DNA from: a bacterium HR15
GTDB lineage: Bacteria > Armatimonadota > Fimbriimonadia > Fimbriimonadales > GBS-DC
Assembly: GCA_002898555.1 (NCBI GenBank)
Contig: BEHR01000002.1
Coordinates: forward strand, 9,898 to 73,897
Direction: 5' to 3'
Length of the DNA: 64,000 nt
In this document: in pieces, positions 5,242 through 64,000 of the stretch
Layout: each line of letters begins with the position of its first letter
Position numbering within the stretch: position 1 is the first letter of the stretch
The notes under the pieces: generated by a model
What the model was told of the DNA's origin: nothing
Database searches by the model: none
Seen by the model: the letters and a program-made list of their open reading frames with translations, nothing else
Position numbers and translations under genes: made by a program

Positions 5242-5612
5242 CCCAGCACCTCACGCAGTAGTTGCAATCCTGTCAGCAGGGTGTGTTGCGCTTCCTGAAG
5301 CAGCCCTTGCCAGTGTGGGTAAGGCGTCGTCTGCAGCGCGGTCTCTGTGAGGGAGGGCGCAAACATCTGCTGAAGGAGATAGGCGGTAGGTAGCAGCAAC
5401 AACAGCCAGAGGAACGCAGCCGGTTGAAGCCAGCTGCGTGGGGATGGGGGCAATGCGCAGGATGTGGGCGCGGGCAGGGTTGGCAGCGCACGCAACAGCT
5501 GCCCCACCGCATCCATCGCCGCGGCGTCCATTTTGCTCGGCTCGGCAGGAGCCTCGCCCTCCAAGTTCGGCTCGGCAGGAGCCTCGCCCTCCAGTTTGTG
5601 CCAATCACTCAT
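5238..5612 (-). CDS. putative membrane anti-sigma factor carrying an in-frame REP doublet
   Basis: ATG 5612 overlaps the ECF sigma TGA (ATGA); single TM segment; LEGEAPAEP x2 encoded by a REP. Confidence 0.65.
   Translation of the reverse strand: MSDWHKLEGEAPAEPNLEGEAPAEPSKMDAAAMDAVGQLLRALPTLPAPTSCALPPSPRSWLQPAAFLWLLLLLPTAYLLQQMFAPSLTETALQTTPYPHWQGLLQEAQHTLLTGLQLLREVLG
5537..5593 (+). repeat. two tandem copies (30-bp period) of REP-like TCGGCTCGGCAGGAGCCTCGCCCTCCA
   Basis: direct repeat at 5537 and 5567; same element at 61816-61944. Confidence 0.92.
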
Positions 5613-6148
5613 CCCAGTTCCTCCTCGATCCAGCGTCGGAGCTGTTCCCGCCCGCGATGGAGCCATGTCTTAACCGTGCCGATAGGCGCACCGAGCTGCG
5701 CCGCGACCTCTTTGAGGGGCAGCCCCTCGGTATAGTGCAGCAGGAGCGCGGCTCGCTGTTCCGCAGGTAAGCGCAACAGCAGCCGCTGGAGTGTGCGTTG
5801 CCGTTCACGCTCGTAAATCTGCTCCTCTATGGTCGGCACATACGGCATGGCTTTAGCAGCGCGTTCCATTCGTTCCTGTTCCACCCGGTGGTCGCGCAGC
5901 GCGTTCAGGCACAGGCGCGCCGTGATGCACAGCAGCCAGGTGGCAAAGGGTTGCGCGGGGTCATACAGCCCCAACCGTGTGTAGGCACGCAGGAACGCTT
6001 CTTGAGTCAGGTCCTCCGCCCATGCGGCGTCGCCCAGCATGCGGAACGCCAGTGAAAAGACACGGTCGCGATAGCGCTCCATCAATCGGTCAAACGCTGT
6101 TAGATCGCCTTCCAGACACCGCGCCACGAGCCATTCATCGGAAAGCAT
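5609..6148 (-). CDS. ECF RNA polymerase sigma factor
   Basis: AEDLTQEAFLRAY, FATWL (region 2) and LKEVAAQLGAPIGTVKTWLHRGR (region 4). Confidence 0.93.
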   Translation of the reverse strand: MLSDEWLVARCLEGDLTAFDRLMERYRDRVFSLAFRMLGDAAWAEDLTQEAFLRAYTRLGLYDPAQPFATWLLCITARLCLNALRDHRVEQERMERAAKAMPYVPTIEEQIYERERQRTLQRLLLRLPAEQRAALLLHYTEGLPLKEVAAQLGAPIGTVKTWLHRGREQLRRWIEEELG

Positions 6149-12510: not shown

Positions 12511-12553
12511 AAATGAGATCGTCGGGCAAGTCGGACAGGTTCGCCGTGTCAGA

Positions 12554-12606
12554 TGAAATTTTTTCTCTGGGGTACCCAGCGCAGCGGGGTCAGAGAAAAA
12601 ATTTCA
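12554..12606 (+). repeat. 53-bp palindromic element (family A)
   Basis: 16-bp perfect inverted arms TGAAATTTTTTCTCTG / CAGAGAAAAAATTTCA. Confidence 0.95.
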
Positions 12607-12640
12607 GATTGGTCTGGCTGGCTCAACTGAGACACGCACG

Positions 12641-22694: not shown

Positions 22695-22708
22695 GCAGCG
22701 CTATCCGA

Positions 22709-22761
22709 TGAAATTTTTTCTCTGGGGTACTCCGCGCAGCGGGGTCAGAGAAAAAATTTCA
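22709..22761 (+). repeat. 53-bp palindromic element (family A)
   Basis: near-identical to 12554-12606. Confidence 0.95.
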
Positions 22762-22780
22762 GGTGCCCGACGGAACCGAC

Positions 22781-25350: not shown

Positions 25351-25354
25351 CGCC

Positions 25355-26494
25355 CTAAACGATCCGTCGTTCCACGATCGCGACGGGATCAAAAGTGCGC
25401 AGTCGCCAGCCGATAGTGCCCAGCGCAAAAAGGAGCACCATGATCGGCACGGGCAGCGTGTAGCGGTAGGCGATGGGATCCAACGGCTCCAGGTAGAGCC
25501 CGCGCGGCTCCATCACGCTCGATTTCGCCCAGCTCAACACACCAAATGCCACCACTACTCCGAGCACCCAGCTGAGTAGCACGATAAGGATGGTTTCCGA
25601 AGAGACTCGTATGAGTAAACTCCGTCGTGTATAGCCGATCGCCTGCAACAGCCCGAACTCTACCAGCCGCTGCTGGAAATAGATGTTTGCCAACAACCCT
25701 GTCATTGTTGCCAGCATCAGCGACACCAGCATGACCACAACCCCCGTGATGAAATAGAGGTTCCTGAATGCGCGGTGGGTCTCCTGTTGCAGCTCGGCGT
25801 AGGTCCACACACGCGCCTGCTTGCCACGCAGGTGCTCGCGCAGCCACCGGTCCAGCTTCGGCTGCTGGCGTACATTAGCAGCGAACACCAGCAAGTTGCG
25901 CAGTGGCGGGAAGAAGTGGGTGCGGGTGAACTCTTCGGTGGTAATTGCCAGCCATGTGTCGCCCTTCAGCACACCCACCACGCGCACTGGCACAGGCGAA
26001 TATTGGTCGGGGGTGAGCGGTGACAGCACCACATCGCCCAGTCGCAGCTTTTTGTTGCGCATCAGGGGTTCCGAGAGGGCGACTTCGGGCGCGCCTGGGG
26101 CGGGGTAACGCCCCGCGCCCAGCGTCAGCCCGCAGCGGGAAACAAGCTGCTCCATCTTATTGGGAGGCACACCGAAGATAACGAAAGGCATCTTGCCCAC
26201 GATCGTCTCCGCGTTCATAAAGCAAACAATCGTCTCATACACTTCGCCCACGCCGGGCGCGCGTTCCACCAGTGCACGCAATTCAGGCTTCAGCATCTCA
26301 CCTCCACGCGGCGTCACCGCGGCGAAATAGCGGTTATAGTCATAGATTTTGAGAATGGTCCGGTCGATGGAGTTGAGCAGGGCAACCACACTGGCAATGG
26401 TCAATACCGCCATCGCCAGCACTAAAGCCAGAGGTAGGCTCCGCCCCGGATTGCGCAACAGGAACAGCACAGGGGAAAGGGGATGACGCTTCAT
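25355..26494 (-). CDS. ABC transporter permease, FtsX/MacB-like
   Basis: N-terminal TM, periplasmic domain, QRLVEFGLLQAIGY motif, 3 C-terminal TMs. Confidence 0.88.
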   Translation of the reverse strand: MKRHPLSPVLFLLRNPGRSLPLALVLAMAVLTIASVVALLNSIDRTILKIYDYNRYFAAVTPRGGEMLKPELRALVERAPGVGEVYETIVCFMNAETIVGKMPFVIFGVPPNKMEQLVSRCGLTLGAGRYPAPGAPEVALSEPLMRNKKLRLGDVVLSPLTPDQYSPVPVRVVGVLKGDTWLAITTEEFTRTHFFPPLRNLLVFAANVRQQPKLDRWLREHLRGKQARVWTYAELQQETHRAFRNLYFITGVVVMLVSLMLATMTGLLANIYFQQRLVEFGLLQAIGYTRRSLLIRVSSETILIVLLSWVLGVVVAFGVLSWAKSSVMEPRGLYLEPLDPIAYRYTLPVPIMVLLFALGTIGWRLRTFDPVAIVERRIV

Positions 26495-33133: not shown

Positions 33134-33206
33134 CAAAATTTCTTCTCCGGCACAGCAGCAACATTTTTCCTCTGACCCGCAAGGGTACTCTGGAGAAGAA
33201 AATTTG
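33134..33206 (-). repeat. variant family A palindromic element with an extra arm
   Basis: CAAAATTTCTTCTCC...CATTTTTCCTCTGACCC-GCAA-GGGTACTCTGGAGAAGAAAATTTG. Confidence 0.75.
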
Positions 33207-33210
33207 GGAT

Positions 33211-42463: not shown

Positions 42464-42601
42464 CTGGAGCCGTTGGATCCCATCGCCTACCGCTACACGC
42501 TGCCCGTGCCAATCATGGTGCTCCTTTTTGTGCTGGACACTATCGGCTGGCGACTGCGCACTTTTGATCCCGTCGCGATCGTGGGGCGACGGATCGTTTA
42601 G
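42464..42601 (+). repeat. 138-bp inverted copy of the 3' end of the ABC permease gene (25355-25492)
   Basis: 133/138 identical by manual alignment; encodes the last 45 codons plus stop. Confidence 0.95.
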
Positions 42602-42735
42602 AGCGATTCACGCTGCTGGTTCCGGGCGGCTTTGAGGGCGGCGCAGAAGCTTGCCCGCCAGATCCGGGAGGGGGTGCTCTTAGCATAGTGCCCGTCCCAA
42701 TTGCCAGGCATCATATAAGGTTCCGCCGTGGCCCC

Positions 42736-51435: not shown

Positions 51436-51477
51436 TGAAAATTTTCCTCCGGGCATGTGGGTCGGAGGAAACATTTG
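51436..51477 (+). repeat. degenerate family A palindromic element
   Basis: TGAAAATTTTCCTCCGGG...GGGTCGGAGGAAACATTTG. Confidence 0.6.
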
Positions 51478-51509
51478 TGGAGCCACAGAGAACCCGGAGA
51501 GGAGGGTGT

Positions 51510-53581: not shown

Positions 53582-54803
53582 CCTTCTCTGAGTGGGTCCA
53601 CATCATCACGGTCCGCAGCACGGCTTCACCACAGGTATAGAAGTGGGGCAGCAGTAGGCGTTCCTGGGGGGTGTGGATGGCGTCCGCCCCTGTGGGGAAC
53701 ACAAGGCACTGAATCCCGTGGGTGCTGAAGGCGTTGGCATCGGAGCCGCCTCCAGTGCGGGTGAGCTTCGCGTCGATGCCCAGCTCCTTCAGTGCGGCGA
53801 CGGCTGCCTTCACGATGGGCGCGTCGGGCGACACACGCACCGCATCGAAAGTTTTGCTGAAGGTCACTTCCACCTTGCCCTCATGCGCCTGCGCCACACG
53901 CTCGCAAATCTCGCGCCAGCGGTTCGCCAGCGATTCCACTCGCTTCGGGTCGAAGCTACGGAACTCGCCTATAAGTTTGACTCGGTCTGGCACGATATTC
54001 ATCGCTTGCCCCCCTTCAATGGTGCCGATGTTCGCGGTGGTCTCCTCGTCGAGGCGTCCCCACTCCATCTGCGCAATCGCCTTCGCTGCCATCTGGATCG
54101 CGTTGCGTCCCTTTTCAGGTTCCGCGCCTGCGTGCGCTGCGCGTCCATGAAAGACCACTTCGAATTTCCAGTGCGTGGGTGACTGCACGAAAACTTCATC
54201 GGGCACTTCTCTGCCATCGACCACCAACCCGTAGCGGGCTTTCAGCAGGCGGGCGTCGAAGGCTTTTGCGCCCAGCAAACCCTTTTCCTCACGGATACTG
54301 AACACCACCTCCAGCGGCGGATGGGGCAGGTTGCGCTCCTTGAGAGTTTGCAGCACCTCCAAGATGATGGCGACCCCTGCTTTATCGTCCGCGCCCAAGA
54401 TGGTGCGTCCATCGGTTTTTATCTCCTCTTTGGTACGCACGATTTGAATCCCTTTGGTGCTGGAAACGGTGTCCAGATGGGCGTTCAGCAACAGGGGAGG
54501 CGCACTGACCGTGCCTTTGAAACGCGCGAACACATTGCCGCCTGTGCCACCCAGTTGCTTGCTGGCGTCGTCGATATGCACGCTGTCCGCGCCCAGTTGA
54601 CGCAGCTTTTCCGCCACAAATTGACAAATGGCAGCCTCGTTTTCCGCGCCGCTGTCGATTTGCACAAGCTGAATGAACAGCTCCGTCATGCGCTCGTGAT
54701 TCAGCATCGGCTGGTGAGGTTGCGCCCCTGCATCTGAACAACCTATTGCCCAGCCGATAATCACCCCTATCAGCCACATGATCACCACCTTGTCGTGTCT
54801 CAT
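53475..54803 (-). CDS. M20 peptidase T-like protein with signal-peptide-like extension
   Basis: AHLDTV, LGADDKAG, EEKGL.G, AHAG, GGSDAN, IHT; RBS AAGGAGGTGA. Confidence 0.88.
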   Translation of the reverse strand: MRHDKVVIMWLIGVIIGWAIGCSDAGAQPHQPMLNHERMTELFIQLVQIDSGAENEAAICQFVAEKLRQLGADSVHIDDASKQLGGTGGNVFARFKGTVSAPPLLLNAHLDTVSSTKGIQIVRTKEEIKTDGRTILGADDKAGVAIILEVLQTLKERNLPHPPLEVVFSIREEKGLLGAKAFDARLLKARYGLVVDGREVPDEVFVQSPTHWKFEVVFHGRAAHAGAEPEKGRNAIQMAAKAIAQMEWGRLDEETTANIGTIEGGQAMNIVPDRVKLIGEFRSFDPKRVESLANRWREICERVAQAHEGKVEVTFSKTFDAVRVSPDAPIVKAAVAALKELGIDAKLTRTGGGSDANAFSTHGIQCLVFPTGADAIHTPQERLLLPHFYTCGEAVLRTVMMWTHSEKVNSAGARPLLGRTDADAPGGDTDRAVHPPGPSPAH

Positions 54804-54846
54804 TGGTTCACCTCCTTGCATATAGGATTTGTCTCTTTTAGTATCC

Positions 54847-55090
54847 TGAAATTTTTTCTCTGACCCAGCTTCGCTGAGTACCCCAGAGAAAAAATTTCAC
54901 CTGAACTTGCTCTCCCGTGGACACACCTGAAATTTTTTCTCTGACCCCACTGCGCGGAGTACCCCAGAGAAAAAATTTTTCCTGAAATTTTTTCTCTGAC
55001 CCCACTGCGCGGAGTACCCCAGAGAAAAAATTTTTCCTGAAATTTTTTCTCTGACCCAGCTTCGCTGAGTACCCCAGAGAAAAAATTTCA
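54847..55090 (-). repeat. cluster of four 53-bp family A palindromes (54847-54899, 54928-54980, 54983-55035, 55038-55090)
   Basis: copies 1 and 4 identical, copies 2 and 3 identical; 55-bp period for copies 2-4. Confidence 0.96.
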
Positions 55091-55094
55091 CTCG

Positions 55095-55544
55095 CTATTC
55101 GCTGCTCGCCTCGTCGCGGATCGCTTGGGCTGCGGTGCGCAGCACACCGTTTACGAAGCGACCCGACTGCGCTGTGCTGTATCTCTTGGCTAACTCCACC
55201 GCTTCGTTGACAATCACGCGTGCAGGCACTTCAGGTTGATAACGCAACTCATAAAGAGCCATTCGAAGGATGTTGCGGTCGATGACGGGCATTCGGTCTA
55301 AGGTCCAGCCCGATGCGAACTGCTCAATCAGTGGGTCTAACTCGGTGGCTTGATGGCTTAGCACCCCGTTCACCAGTTGGCGCATATATCGAGCGATGCC
55401 GGGTTCCAGTTGAGCGACCTCTAATGCCTCTTCGACGACCTCTTGGGGGTCGCGTTGTCCCACCTCAATCTGGTAGAGGGCGCGCAGTGCCCATTCGCGG
55501 GCGAGTCGTCGGGGTGAGACCTCGCGGGGTGGGTCGGGGTTCAT
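55095..55544 (-). CDS. nusB: transcription antitermination factor NusB
   Basis: RRLARE.AL..LYQ, W.LDRM..IDRNILR, NEAVELAK, FVNGVL. Confidence 0.95.
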   Translation of the reverse strand: MNPDPPREVSPRRLAREWALRALYQIEVGQRDPQEVVEEALEVAQLEPGIARYMRQLVNGVLSHQATELDPLIEQFASGWTLDRMPVIDRNILRMALYELRYQPEVPARVIVNEAVELAKRYSTAQSGRFVNGVLRTAAQAIRDEASSE

Positions 55545-56914
55545 TGGACAACACCTCCGATGGGCGCATAGCCACGCAAGAAGCGTGGCACGAACGGTGT
55601 CGATACGCGCCCCTGCAGGAATTCGGGCGTCTGCACCAGGCGCAGCAAGAAGTCGCGCGTGGTCTGCACGCCCTCGATGCGCACCTCATGCAGCGCACGG
55701 GTCAAACGCGCGACCGCCTCCTCACGGCTGGGCGCATAGGCGATAATCTTCGCCAGCAGCGGGTCATAGTAGGGCGGGATGCTATAGCCTGTGTAGAGAT
55801 GGCTGTCCACGCGGATCCCTGGACCGCCCGGTGGCGTCCATTCGCTCAATCGCCCGGTAGAGGGAGTAAAGTCATGTTCGGGGATTTCGGCAGTCAGGCG
55901 CACCTCGATGGCATGTCCGCTCAACCGAATGTCGCTCTGCTTGAACGGCAGTCGTTCGCCCGCCGCGATGCGTATCTGCCACTGCACGATGTCGATGCCC
56001 GTCACCTGCTCCGTCACAGGATGTTCGACTTGCAGGCGAGTGTTCATCTCGATAAAGTAGAAGTTGCCGTTGCTGTCCATCAGGAACTCGACGGTGCCAG
56101 CGTTCTGGTAGCCCACAGCACGGGCCACTTTGATGGCAGCCTCACCTAATGCGCGGCGTGTCACCTCATCTACATGGGGGGCAGGAGCCTCCTCTACCAT
56201 TTTCTGATGGCGCGGGGTCTGTAAAGAGCACTCTCGCTCAAAGAGGTGCAACACATTCCCATGCGAATCGGCAAGCACTTGCACTTCGATATGGCGCGGT
56301 TCGGGAATATACTTTTCCAGGTAGACATCGGGCGAGCCGAATGCAGCCTGCGCTTCGGACTGGGCGATGCGCAGGGCGGGCAGCAACTCCTCCTCGGTGT
56401 TCACACGCCGAATTCCTCGTCCGCCTCCGCCTGCTGCCGCTTTAATCAACAGCGGGAAACCAATTTGGGAGGCGGCACGCAGTGCTTCCTCTTCTGAACG
56501 GATGGCGTCGGGCGTGCCAGGCAGTACGGGCACGCCTGCCTGCTGCGCGATTTTGCGGGCGAGTGCCTTATCGCCCATCTGGGCAATCGCACTGTGGGGT
56601 GGGCCGATGAAGCGGATGCCCTGCGACTCGCATGCCTCGGCGAAGCTGCTGCACTCCGATAGATAGCCATAGCCCGGATGGATGGCTTCCGCTTCGGTGA
56701 TGAGCGCCGCCATCAGAATATGAGGAATATTTAGATAACTTTCGCTACTGGGCGGCGGACCGATGCAAACCGCCTCATCCGCCCAGTGCACATGCAGGGC
56801 ATCCCGATCGGCTTCCGAATAGACCGCGACCGTGCGAATGCCCATCTCGCGGCACGCGCGGATGATGCGCACCGCTATCTCGCCCCGATTCGCTATCAGG
56901 ATTTTGTTGAACAT
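55541..56914 (-). CDS. accC: acetyl-CoA carboxylase biotin carboxylase subunit
   Basis: MFNKILIANRGEIA, HPGYG, GGGGRG, EMNTRLQVEHPVTE. Confidence 0.95.
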   Translation of the reverse strand: MFNKILIANRGEIAVRIIRACREMGIRTVAVYSEADRDALHVHWADEAVCIGPPPSSESYLNIPHILMAALITEAEAIHPGYGYLSECSSFAEACESQGIRFIGPPHSAIAQMGDKALARKIAQQAGVPVLPGTPDAIRSEEEALRAASQIGFPLLIKAAAGGGGRGIRRVNTEEELLPALRIAQSEAQAAFGSPDVYLEKYIPEPRHIEVQVLADSHGNVLHLFERECSLQTPRHQKMVEEAPAPHVDEVTRRALGEAAIKVARAVGYQNAGTVEFLMDSNGNFYFIEMNTRLQVEHPVTEQVTGIDIVQWQIRIAAGERLPFKQSDIRLSGHAIEVRLTAEIPEHDFTPSTGRLSEWTPPGGPGIRVDSHLYTGYSIPPYYDPLLAKIIAYAPSREEAVARLTRALHEVRIEGVQTTRDFLLRLVQTPEFLQGRVSTPFVPRFLRGYAPIGGVVQ

Positions 56915-57220
56915 AACCCGTCCTGAAGTGTACCCCAGAAGATAGGAGGTTCTCCCCTCTACAATATGGCTCTTCCTCTGTGTAAAGTGTCTCACGGCGC
57001 AATGCTTCGGTAGGCGGTGCCTCGTTGGTTGCGTATCTTTCAGCCCATCGCAGCAAGCACGCGCTTGCTCATTGTCCTTATGGAGGTGTGACGGTTCACT
57101 TATGGATAGTCAAAGTGTGTCAACAATCACAGGCACAATGTCTTGCGTAGCAAGGCTTCCACCGATGGGGAGCATTCAGGCAAGTATACCCCAACCAAGT
57201 TTTCCCCATCAGGTGTGCCG

Positions 57221-57577
57221 CTAATAGCTCCTATGTCCTGGTGTGGAACATCGCACCGTACCCGTGTTCGGGTCGTACTGATAAGGCTGACCCGATTCGG
57301 GGCAGACCAGCATTTGGTCGGGCAACCCCAGCTCCTTGAGTGTGGCAGGTAACCCTTCTTCAGAACCCTGCCGCATTTGGATGGCGGTACGAATCTGGTT
57401 CAAGTTATTGCGGCATTCTACGCCGCGTGCCGCTTGCTTGGTCTCCGTGACACGGCTGACAGGCGGTGCCCCAGGCATAGTACCCGCCTGTCTTCCTGTG
57501 CCATAATAGAGCCATACCACCACTAAAATCGCCAATATCGCCACTGCTGCCAGTACACCCACTAATCGCATGCTCAT
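57221..57577 (-). CDS. pilin-like membrane-anchored protein
   Basis: N-terminal TM; CRNNLNQIR, CP.SG.PY.Y, C..PGH resemble the pilin at 32759; no GFTL motif. Confidence 0.6.
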   Translation of the reverse strand: MSMRLVGVLAAVAILAILVVVWLYYGTGRQAGTMPGAPPVSRVTETKQAARGVECRNNLNQIRTAIQMRQGSEEGLPATLKELGLPDQMLVCPESGQPYQYDPNTGTVRCSTPGHRSY

Positions 57578-57603
57578 CTCCTCGTGAGGCGAGTCGTTTT
57601 TTG

Positions 57604-57640
57604 GGCGAGTGGCGGGTAGTGAGTAGAATCTACTCGCTAT

Positions 57641-57660
<20 letters not shown>
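57604..57660. repeat. heptamer-periodic inverted repeat (family C) overlapping the ALDH stop
   Basis: GGCGAGT GGCGGGT AGTGAGT AGAATCT ACTCGCT ATTCACC ATTCGCC ACTCGCT. Confidence 0.85.
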
Positions 57661-61794
<4,134 letters not shown>

Positions 61795-61815
61795 ACCGAT
61801 GCTCGAAACTCATAC

Positions 61816-61944
61816 TGGAGGGCGAGCGTCCCCGCGAGCCGACATGCGTGACGAAGACAATCCTGTCTTAGTGCGGCGTCGGTTGGAATGGCTCGGCGGG
61901 AACCTCGCCCTCCAGATTCGGCTCGGCGGGAGCCTCGCCCTCCA
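61816..61944. repeat. BIME-like REP cluster (family B): one inverted and two tandem copies
   Basis: TGGAGGGCGAGCGTCCCCGCGAGCCGA (61816-61842) and GGCTCGGCGGGARCCTCGCCCTCCA x2. Confidence 0.88.
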
Positions 61945-61996
61945 AAATGCCCAAGCGTGAATGCCTACCCATCTCCTTGAACTCCAGTTTTTAAAC

Positions 61997-62020
61997 AGCT
62001 GGGTCAGAGAAAAAATTTCA
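61997..62020 (+). repeat. half copy of the family A element
   Basis: AGCTGGGTCAGAGAAAAAATTTCA matches the right half of copies 54847 and 55038 (reverse complement). Confidence 0.88.
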
Positions 62021-62061
62021 TGACGGAAGAACCTCTCACGCGACGCGAGAGGCTTAGGGCG

Positions 62062-63327
62062 TTAAAAATAGTCCATTGGGCGCAAGCAGGGAGAGCGAGC
62101 GGGGAACAGTTGATCCAGAGTGTCTATCAAAGCAGGGGGCGCATCCAGCAGCTCACGCACTGCGAGTTCGCTTGCACTGAAAGTGCCCATCGTGAGCAGT
62201 GCGAGCGAGCGCATATTGAGGCGCACGATGGGCAAGCCCTCATGCCCTCCCCGCGCCACATGCCAGCCCTTTGAATCCGCAAACACCGTGTACACCCCTG
62301 TGTTTGCCTCAATCTGGGGATCGTGAACCGCCATGCAGAAGGGCTGCACTCCCTCGGTAGGGCATGCCCTCAACAGCCGCTGCAACAGGTCATGTGGATG
62401 CACCACGCGCCACATGAAGCCGGGCATTATCTCCCATCGCAGGAACGGCTCTCCCGGATCGCGGTGTGTGGGTGTCCAGCCCGTCAGTTGCAGCGATGCC
62501 AGTTCATCAGGTGTTCCGCTAAACTCGACCTGACGCACATGTTCCTCGTTCGCCGCGAGCCAGCCTATCAACGCATGCCGTGCCCGCTCCGTAAGCCAAA
62601 GCATCTCACGCACACGGAGCACCCAGCCCGCTTCGACAAAGTCGTAAATCAAATAACCTTCCAGCGCCCCGTTATGGCAATAAACGAGCTTGTGGCGAAA
62701 GTTCCACAACAGATAGCTCCAGCGCAACTCGTCGCGCAGCAGGCGTCCGGTGGCAGGGCGCACTCGCTGTTCGTACAGATGGCGGATGGCAGGATAGTCC
62801 GTTTCAAGGGCACGCCGCACCCCCTCAGGTGGGAAAGGCGGCAGCAGCAGGGGAGCTACGCGCACGCGCATCAGGCTTCCCACCACCTCCCAGCCCAGCG
62901 GACGATAGAAATCGAGATCGAACGCTTGCAGCGCTGCTCCCGGGATGCCCTGCGTATGGAGCGCGTTCAGCACGGCGGTCAGGAGGCGGCGCGCATAGCC
63001 GCGCCGACGGTATTGCGGGTGGGTCGCTACCCCAGCGATGCCCACACAGGGAACCAACTGCTCGCCGATCCACATCTGCAAGGGGATAACGGTCAGAATA
63101 GAAACCAGCGTTCGAGATGCTCCCTCACCTACCCACAACCCCCACCGCTGATTGTGGGGATAATAAGGGTCGTTGTAGAAATAAGGGCGTGCCGTTGCCA
63201 GATCAAAGCCAAAGCATTGACAGAGCAGGCGCAAAAACGCCTCCTCATCCTCCAGGATTTTCTTCTCCGACCCAGACGGGTACCCCGGAGAAGAAAATCC
63301 TGCTGGCGAGATCATCTCAATTTGCAC
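62062..63327 (-). CDS. Eis-like GNAT acetyltransferase with SCP2 C-terminal domain (start could be 63360 or 63315)
   Basis: GIAGVATHPQYRRRGYA, FY..LGW, C-terminal LF......DYF. Confidence 0.9.
   Translation of the reverse strand: MQIEMISPAGFSSPGYPSGSEKKILEDEEAFLRLLCQCFGFDLATARPYFYNDPYYPHNQRWGLWVGEGASRTLVSILTVIPLQMWIGEQLVPCVGIAGVATHPQYRRRGYARRLLTAVLNALHTQGIPGAALQAFDLDFYRPLGWEVVGSLMRVRVAPLLLPPFPPEGVRRALETDYPAIRHLYEQRVRPATGRLLRDELRWSYLLWNFRHKLVYCHNGALEGYLIYDFVEAGWVLRVREMLWLTERARHALIGWLAANEEHVRQVEFSGTPDELASLQLTGWTPTHRDPGEPFLRWEIMPGFMWRVVHPHDLLQRLLRACPTEGVQPFCMAVHDPQIEANTGVYTVFADSKGWHVARGGHEGLPIVRLNMRSLALLTMGTFSASELAVRELLDAPPALIDTLDQLFPARSPCLRPMDYF
63253..63302 (-). repeat. family A variant inserted in frame in the GNAT gene
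   Basis: 17-bp perfect arms CAGGATTTTCTTCTCCG / CGGAGAAGAAAATCCTG around the GACCC...GGGTACCCC core. Confidence 0.88.
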
Positions 63328-63426
63328 GGGCAGTCGCCGCAGTTTTAACAGGTTCATCAACCTTCTCCAAGATTTTTTTTTTTTTCGACAGAGGGATGGC
63401 TATTCCTGTGATGTCGGAGGATGAAC

Positions 63427-63469
63427 CAAAATTTTTTCTCTGGGGTACTGGGTCAGAGAAAAAATTTTG
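63427..63469 (+). repeat. short (43-bp) family A palindrome
   Basis: CAAAATTTTTTCTCTGGGGTACTGGGTCAGAGAAAAAATTTTG. Confidence 0.92.
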
Positions 63470-63554
63470 CGTCGAGAGGGAATTCCCGAAAAGATTCTCC
63501 CGCAGTTCAGATGCCCGTCAGGCAGGTGTAGGTTCACGGCATAATGTCCCGGCC

Positions 63555-63986
63555 CTAATGCCTAAAAATCTGCGCAAAGCCCAGCGCGCCCAGTATCAGC
63601 AGCACGAGAATCACCAGCATGACCAACCAGCCCACAAACCGATGCCATCGGCTGAGACGGCGCCGCTCGAAGGGCACCGATTGATCTTGCTGGCGACGGT
63701 CGCGCCCGAACAGAAACACGAAGTAGTAGTGCCCGAAAAAGAAGGGGATTGTACCGCGCACATCTATCAGATGGCGACGATGATAGTGATAGAGTGCCTC
63801 TTTCAGCTGGCGATATTGGTCAGGCGTGAGCGATGCAATCAGTTCGGGTGGCAAGGCATTTAGCAGGTGCTGAATGTAGAGGTCGCGCGGTTGCTCCAAG
63901 GGGGCATCGCCTGCAAACGCCTCTTGTATCAGGCGTAGGGGCGGACGCTCCTCGAACGCCTCGCGCTGCGGCTCCGGTAGTGCCAT
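63555..63986 (-). CDS. conserved hypothetical membrane protein
   Basis: LP..LIASLTPDQ...LK.AL, H.IDVR.TIP, YYFVFLFGRDRR, C-terminal TM. Confidence 0.7.
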   Translation of the reverse strand: MALPEPQREAFEERPPLRLIQEAFAGDAPLEQPRDLYIQHLLNALPPELIASLTPDQYRQLKEALYHYHRRHLIDVRGTIPFFFGHYYFVFLFGRDRRQQDQSVPFERRRLSRWHRFVGWLVMLVILVLLILGALGFAQIFRH

Positions 63987-64000
63987 CCTATAGACTATTT

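Follow-up and report, generated by a model that had tools for sequence, protein, structure and literature searches.

An in-frame copy of a repeat hairpin in an Eis-like GNAT gene of the Armatimonadota bacterium HR15

One copy of a short repeat hairpin lies in frame within an Eis-like GNAT acetyltransferase gene of bacterium HR15, and the family to which it belongs appears, among the genomes searched, to be restricted to this single genome. The family occupies 177 loci, the orthologous sites are empty, copies are nested within one another, and the copies confirmed inside genes keep open frames with insert lengths that are multiples of three. We consider it probable that the GNAT copy arrived as a non-autonomous mobile element served by an enzyme acting in trans, and that it is translated as a tolerated loop of 17 residues.

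The host gene and its insert

The window, i.e. the whole stretch of 64,000 nucleotides analysed, corresponds to G000:C2:9898-73897 of the study genome (G000; 3.04 Mb in 72 contigs, 98.29% complete), whose contigs are written with the prefix C. Judged from homolog names, it probably belongs to the Fimbriimonadales, Armatimonadota. The following features concern the host gene.

62062 to 63357, minus strand: host gene, Eis-like GNAT acetyltransferase, 431 aa from ATG 63357 or 432 aa from TTG 63360
63253 to 63302, minus strand: 50-nt imperfect palindrome of the short, CAG-ended subfamily
63253 to 63303, minus strand: net 51-nt insertion, 17 codons encoding AGFSSPGYPSGSEKKIL, residues 20-36 of the 432-aa translation
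63361 to 63368, minus strand: purine-rich GGAGAAGG upstream of the element, putative ribosome-binding site

The host ORF carries the Pfam domains Acetyltransf_9, Acetyltransf_17 and SCP2_2, and its predicted model matches Eis-family structures at E-values of 1e-30 to 1e-22. As the first-pass annotation had reported, the minus-strand translation of window 63253-63303 gives AGFSSPGYPSGSEKKIL in frame within ORF 62062-63360(-); the palindrome, then taken to be 51 nt long, is corrected to 50 nt, and the net insertion of 51 nt stands. In the fold of the copy, a 17-bp stem is followed by a 4-nt bulge and by a 4-bp apical stem that closes on a 4-nt loop (-21.9 kcal/mol, z -9.5, with 0 of 200 shuffles as stable), and the sequence of its 42-nt core is found identically at 12 places in the genome. 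The same base stands on both flanks, and the copy reads as a 50-nt palindrome plus one extra base, so that the exact boundary of the insert can be moved by a few bases.

Homologs were compared in an alignment of 45 sequences, comprising the protein itself, 25 of 27 database matches (self and one fragment excluded) and 19 of 25 ortholog loci. A 17-column gap at the insert site, as had been expected of orthologs, is present in 42 of the 44 homologs, while the remaining two begin downstream of the site and cannot be judged; among those that span it, none keeps the 17 residues without the palindrome. Residues upstream of the insert (LKLWRPPVQI-type) are kept in homologs and conserved in the genus. 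The AlphaFold model (pLDDT 90.9, pTM 0.88) has strand beta1 at residues 12-17, scores below 50 at residues 23-27, and shows the final seven residues of the insert lengthening helix alpha1. It thus places the insert, with low confidence, between beta1 and alpha1, in support of the position first proposed.

Because many N-terminal REPs are described as really extragenic in PMC3733652 (section 15), it might be supposed that the GNAT copy is untranslated owing to a downstream start, or is an assembly artefact, with the host gene damaged. The copy is young, having a core identical at 12 sites, and the locus was found in a single sequencing run, a hot-spring metagenome that may be the source sample. 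One contig of this run (run X1) covers 62699-63286 with no differences, entering the element at its downstream junction and extending over 34 nt of it; among the pieces listed, none spans the opposite junction, and no GNAT allele lacking the insert was seen. Nevertheless, the conserved beta1 residues, ATG 63357 and GGAGAAGG, which at 63368-63361 precedes that ATG on the minus strand and is likely the ribosome-binding site of the gene, all lie upstream of the element, and a start downstream of 63253 would, according to the model, cost the protein beta1 and part of alpha1; the warning in that section of PMC3733652 therefore seems not to apply here. The terminal bases of the copy are unlike those of most other copies, identity to a third genome (73.9%, against 74.2% for an element-free relative) gives no sign of acceleration, and the ten other inserts described below, mostly deep inside genes, cannot be start-site errors. 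We give an artefact or an untranslated copy very little credence.

The hairpin family across the genome

With 23 short and 15 long copies as the basis of the family profiles, and with acceptance at E<0.5, 177 loci were obtained, compared with 0 and 1 matches at E<1 in the reversed genome. They comprise 137 intergenic loci, 16 at gene ends and 24 inside called genes; as 82.6% of the DNA is coding, genes are strongly depleted. The unit has two forms, of 50 nt and 55 nt. The 55-nt form contains TGA, and at several sites a gene takes its stop codon from this form; the short form is, in most copies, free of stops in all six frames. Of the 15 loci of the CAG-ended subfamily, 8 are genic; of the 49 loci with TGAAA ends, 2 are. 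Bases on the two arms covary, with 328 of 391 cells paired versus 293 +/- 8 after shuffling (0 of 2000 shuffles as high), although subfamily structure alone can inflate this signal. Besides the GNAT copy, the window holds the following members.

63426 to 63469: internally shortened copy, in the intergenic stretch preceding the host GNAT gene
61996 to 62021: half copy, one arm, downstream of the host GNAT gene
54846 to 55090: four long (55-nt type) copies, intergenic
51437 to 51478: degenerate short copy, intergenic by the gene calls of this analysis
33159 to 33207: degenerate short copy, intergenic
22708 to 22762: long (55-nt) copy, intergenic
12553 to 12607: long (55-nt) copy, intergenic

Elsewhere, at G000:C6:11331-12729, a copy lies between two phage-like genes (capsid-like by reading). 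Family members occupy 14 of 172 convergent gaps (8.1%), 70 of 840 tandem gaps (8.3%) and 40 of 348 divergent gaps (11.5%), uncorrected for gap length, and there is thus no enrichment between convergent genes. No consensus site for a terminator or promoter role was found on the element.

Inserts in other genes

Comparison with orthologs identified clean in-frame inserts of 15-51 aa in 11 genes, so that the RPE-like behaviour (Rickettsia palindromic element) attributed to the GNAT copy by the first-pass annotation holds and extends to at least ten other genes.

GNAT, Eis-like: 17 aa
ArgC: 26 aa, lacking in 94 of 94 homologs
FAD oxidoreductase: 17 aa
Heavy-metal P-type ATPase: 16 aa
Beta-galactosidase-like protein: 16 aa
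DinG/YoaA: 16 aa, 48 nt with no extra base
Amidase: 17 aa, from match length (480 aa versus 463 aa in two genomes)
Gene at C5:31678: 17 aa
Gene at C20:40082: 17 aa
Gene at C2:75239: 51 aa, a triple nest
Gene on C51: 15 aa

Three more inserts lie in poorly aligned regions, in MtaB, GlnD and a hydantoinase-like gene (56 or 60 nt in the last, depending on method). Ten in-gene loci are without a close ortholog in the 1.59 Mb available from the closest relative (G003) and are outside the 11 confirmed, and a weak in-gene match at C32:27590 was rejected, as its ortholog shows no gap. Insert lengths that are not a multiple of three occur in three rows, all between called genes. Across 1079 ortholog pairs with G003, the element accounts for 8 of 23 clean insertions of at least 10 aa; the reverse comparison found 10 insertions in G003.

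ArgC is the only full-length match in the genome, and its PGCYP motif is intact. Its insert is placed, with low confidence, in a loop between helix 93-103 and strand 133-136, and so in both predicted models examined (GNAT and ArgC, two of the 11 proteins) the insert falls between secondary-structure elements. Eleven host genes have dN/dS values of 0.06-0.11, somewhat above the background median (0.071, quartiles 0.048-0.097, 148 genes), although a whole-branch value of this kind cannot reveal, and so cannot exclude, damage by a recent insertion.

Reading phase and the question of function

Among internal copies of at least 28 bits, the Ser/Pro/Gly-rich phase is used in 10 of 14, the KIFF-type phase in three and the Arg-rich phase in one (p=0.004 against one third); the count includes single-phase copies and excludes eight weaker matches, two C-terminal copies and the C51 copy, which has no score. 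This bias may reflect selection for a flexible peptide, though insertion at codon boundaries would yield the same bias. The peptides FFLWGT and VREKIS, proposed by the first-pass annotation as queries against the proteome, occur in none of 2353 called proteins, since they derive from the 55-nt subfamily, which is almost entirely intergenic. Its proposal that the element creates new peptide sequence stands at the level of the reading frame, with no sign of a function for the peptide.

One could argue that the inserts are selected for function, the peptide acting as a surface tag or the hairpin as a signal for mRNA pausing or stability, given that a single phase dominates, that the CAG-ended subfamily is so much more often genic than the TGAAA-ended one, and that the arms stay paired. 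The host proteins, however, are unrelated to one another, relatives manage without the inserts, and in-gene cores lie 0-7 bases from the nearest well-conserved core, with peptides diverging freely; copies are also not enriched in convergent gaps, and the difference between subfamilies is explained by constraints of frame and length. Selection for function is therefore very unlikely in our estimation, and the peptide is likely a near-neutral passenger.

Ends, nesting and mode of spread

Of 10 in-gene copies, 8 have the same base on the two flanks of the palindrome, more than expected from base composition (p=0.0005), which suggests a 50+1 arithmetic giving 17 codons; but DinG, one of these eight, has a 48-nt insert without an extra base, so the gain is 0-1 base. 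Across 92 clusters there is no duplication of 2-4 bp beyond matches to the element ends. It appears from these junctions that insertion adds 0-1 extra base and does not generate a classical duplication. In-gene target sites show no preference for hairpins, as 223 of 300 random sets folded as well.

Arm subtypes pair concentrically in 19 of 21 symmetric clusters, with one tie and one against, and the inner nested copies lie directly after a GGGTA-C/G motif at the apex of the hairpin. Since junctions are common to many of the composites, independent nesting events are fewer than the clusters counted. The genome also has a distinct GTAG-type REP that the element interrupts. Together with the empty orthologous sites, nesting speaks for the mobility that the first-pass annotation ascribed to the element, though no mobilising enzyme was found.

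Spread might also have taken place without a dedicated transposase, by capture of hairpin fragments at breaks or stalled forks, with template switching growing and homogenising the arms. Such a process would be in keeping with an assembly 98% complete that holds no linked transposase, with ends that covary on both arms and an extra-base count varying between 0 and 1, and with A+A+B- and A+B-B- forms that resemble slippage deletions of nested forms. Unit insertion nonetheless fits better than slippage with the near-constant units of 50 and 55 nt and with cores identical at 12 unlinked sites, and it is favoured by different subtypes nested concentrically at one internal position. Moreover, 7 of 144 contig ends terminate in the element, so a gene flanked by it may be unassembled. 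On balance we regard spread without a dedicated enzyme as unlikely.

In the reading we prefer, whole hairpins would be copied by a trans-acting enzyme, for which a single-strand transposase that recognises hairpins (HUH/RAYT type), either lost or unassembled, is the likeliest candidate. We take this type as the best analogue since REPINs, as far as described in bioRxiv 10.1101/2021.07.10.451892, are hairpins of this kind, and since a RAYT-like domain is present in G003. Insertion would gain 0-1 base and would have a hotspot where the element's own copies have their apex; selection would then remove insertions that shift the frame or disrupt the protein core, and retain loop inserts of 48 or 51 nt (and multiples), mostly in the Ser/Pro/Gly-rich phase.

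Search for a mobilising enzyme

A search of seven families, together with self-BLAST, revealed no element-linked transposase, whether RAYT or another; IS3, IS256, IS630 and ISL3 are outside these seven. A scan for the HUH motif and tblastn with the RAYT-like domain of G003 likewise found no RAYT in the study genome, which at 98.29% completeness in 72 contigs does not amount to proof of absence. No IS-like match lies within 2.2 kb of a copy, and genes bracketed by copies on both sides include no transposase-like protein by reading.

The sole Y1_Tnp match was rejected as a mobiliser, as the HUH motif is missing and the nearest copy is 9.8 kb away. This 251-aa Y1_Tnp-like protein without the motif (L031:1183-1938, minus strand) may be a domesticated transposase, since Y1_Tnp frames of similar length are present in most genomes of the family, including relatives that lack the element. 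A GIY-YIG match 91 bp from a copy is, by reading, a 608-aa UvrC-like gene. DDE_Tnp_1 is represented by a broken remnant and a weak second match, neither linked to the element, and the IS110 family was not found in the genome. Also not linked are two XerC/D-like genes, a solo TnpB-like gene, and a reverse transcriptase adjoining a small Cas2-like gene; the last, an 878-aa reverse-transcriptase-domain gene (G000:C35:794-3430, minus strand), is possibly an RT-Cas1 fusion. The RAYT-like HUH domain of G003 (L157:11150-11323, plus strand) lies inside a 965-aa open frame that continues, by reading, into carbamoyl-phosphate synthase large-subunit-like sequence, with repeat-derived peptides.

Distribution outside this genome and other repeats

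Of 41 genomes searched, this one alone has the exact half-site, in 51 places; the 40 relatives without it include three from the same genus. In G003 the profiles were run on 140 contig starts totalling 1.59 Mb of a genome of some 2.7 Mb, and no match is better than E 2.4. The full family pattern has no match in the genome collection or the metagenome collections. A relaxed pattern gave 2, 1 and 7 single matches across these collections, and all ten were rejected as chance (10 bits or less against the family profile); neither of the two in the genome collection is in Rickettsia. Rfam gave no match at gathering score in window 54500-64000, and neither of two weak matches is on the element. Judged from titles, no literature was found that describes this hairpin family.

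Other repeats are also present. Palindromes of the GGAGGGCGAG type have 98 + 45 exact 15-mer matches here and none in 1.59 Mb of G003; this family and the GTAG-type REP occur genome-wide, including window 5509-5623 and 61811-61974, and some copies of these repeats are in frame in genes (C10:41901, 31 aa; C10:31964; C27:46172). Two sequences of 142 nt at window 25351-25492 and 42464-42605 form an inverted pair, 96% alike and 17 kb apart, and G000:C2:100649-108783 holds a tandemly duplicated segment of about 4 kb in which several genes are nearly identical. G003 has repeat families of its own (loci L052-L191) that do not figure among the commonest repeats of the study genome, so there is turnover of such families from one species to the next within the genus. 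The G003 gene L144, ortholog of G000 C19:35648-38296, has a 438-aa insertion seen only in G003, starting with C and ending with HN, which looks like an intein.

Comparison with known palindromic elements

RPEs (Ogata et al. 2000, 2002, as summarised in PMC10969869 and PMC2229807) are 105-150 bp long and nearly half of them lie in frame in genes; an RPE-bearing Gmk is active (PMC2229807). As those summaries describe them, RPEs resemble the present family in being repeated palindromes that fold into a stem-loop, restricted to a lineage, intergenic as well as fused in frame in unrelated conserved genes (here 11 genes, the fusions being absent from orthologs), inserted in surface loops with the fold kept (here in predicted models of two of the 11 proteins), without an established mobiliser, and of likely neutral effect. 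The hairpin differs in its units of 50-55 nt, in a hot-spring Armatimonadota host rather than an intracellular alphaproteobacterium, in having 14% of its loci in genes, and in its use of several reading phases and both orientations and its nesting inside itself. By the same accounts, it works like an RPE and is not a member of the RPEs, from which length and host set it apart.

Intragenic GTAG and CGTC REPs encode 20-30 aa or more in several species (PMC3733652, whose Additional file 3 gives the target ORFs). As far as these sources characterise REPs, the hairpin shares with the GTAG/CGTC and REPIN-RAYT systems a short palindrome with a bulge and copy numbers in the tens to hundreds, the copies being single or grouped, and with GTAG/CGTC REPs in particular a mostly extragenic location (137 intergenic and 16 gene-end of 177 loci), some copies inside ORFs, and some from which a neighbouring gene takes its stop codon. 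In contrast to GTAG/CGTC REPs, the ends of 92 hairpin clusters carry no GTAG or CGTC tag; unlike REPIN-RAYT systems, no RAYT was found (72 contigs, 98.29% complete) and the hairpin is not a two-REP doublet; and unlike REPs as there described, it shows no preference for convergent or unidirectional gaps (8.1% and 8.3%, versus 11.5% divergent) and is itself found inserted in a distinct GTAG-type REP within this genome. With MITEs (Correia, RUP, ERIC and YPAL, as covered in PMC2229807) it has in common non-coding sequence, terminal inverted repeats and likely movement in trans, but it is half the size, lacks TA ends, appears to make at most a one-base duplication, and has no cognate IS with matching ends among the seven families and self-BLAST results.

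Implications

The family provides well-documented protein-coding palindromes outside the usual hosts, of a phenomenon that is itself already established, and quantifies it, in that one hairpin family contributes 8 of 23 clean insertions of at least 10 aa across 1079 ortholog pairs. A 17-residue peptide shared by unrelated enzymes, including the only ArgC found, offers a natural test of loop tolerance, and of which peptide phase is least harmful. Should the enzyme be found, the fixed self-insertion site would serve as a defined substrate for it.

A further reading, which we put forward as doubtful, is that the 50-nt hairpin is self-targeting, is moved by an enzyme that is neither a RAYT nor that of a classical IS, is pre-adapted to enter genes, and is the source of about one third of the larger insertions since the split from the closest known relative. 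Pre-adaptation would follow from the short form being nearly stop-free in six frames and, with one added base, equal to 17 codons. If this reading were true, the hairpin would represent, for a hot-spring bacterium, a source of new loop sequence that can be counted.
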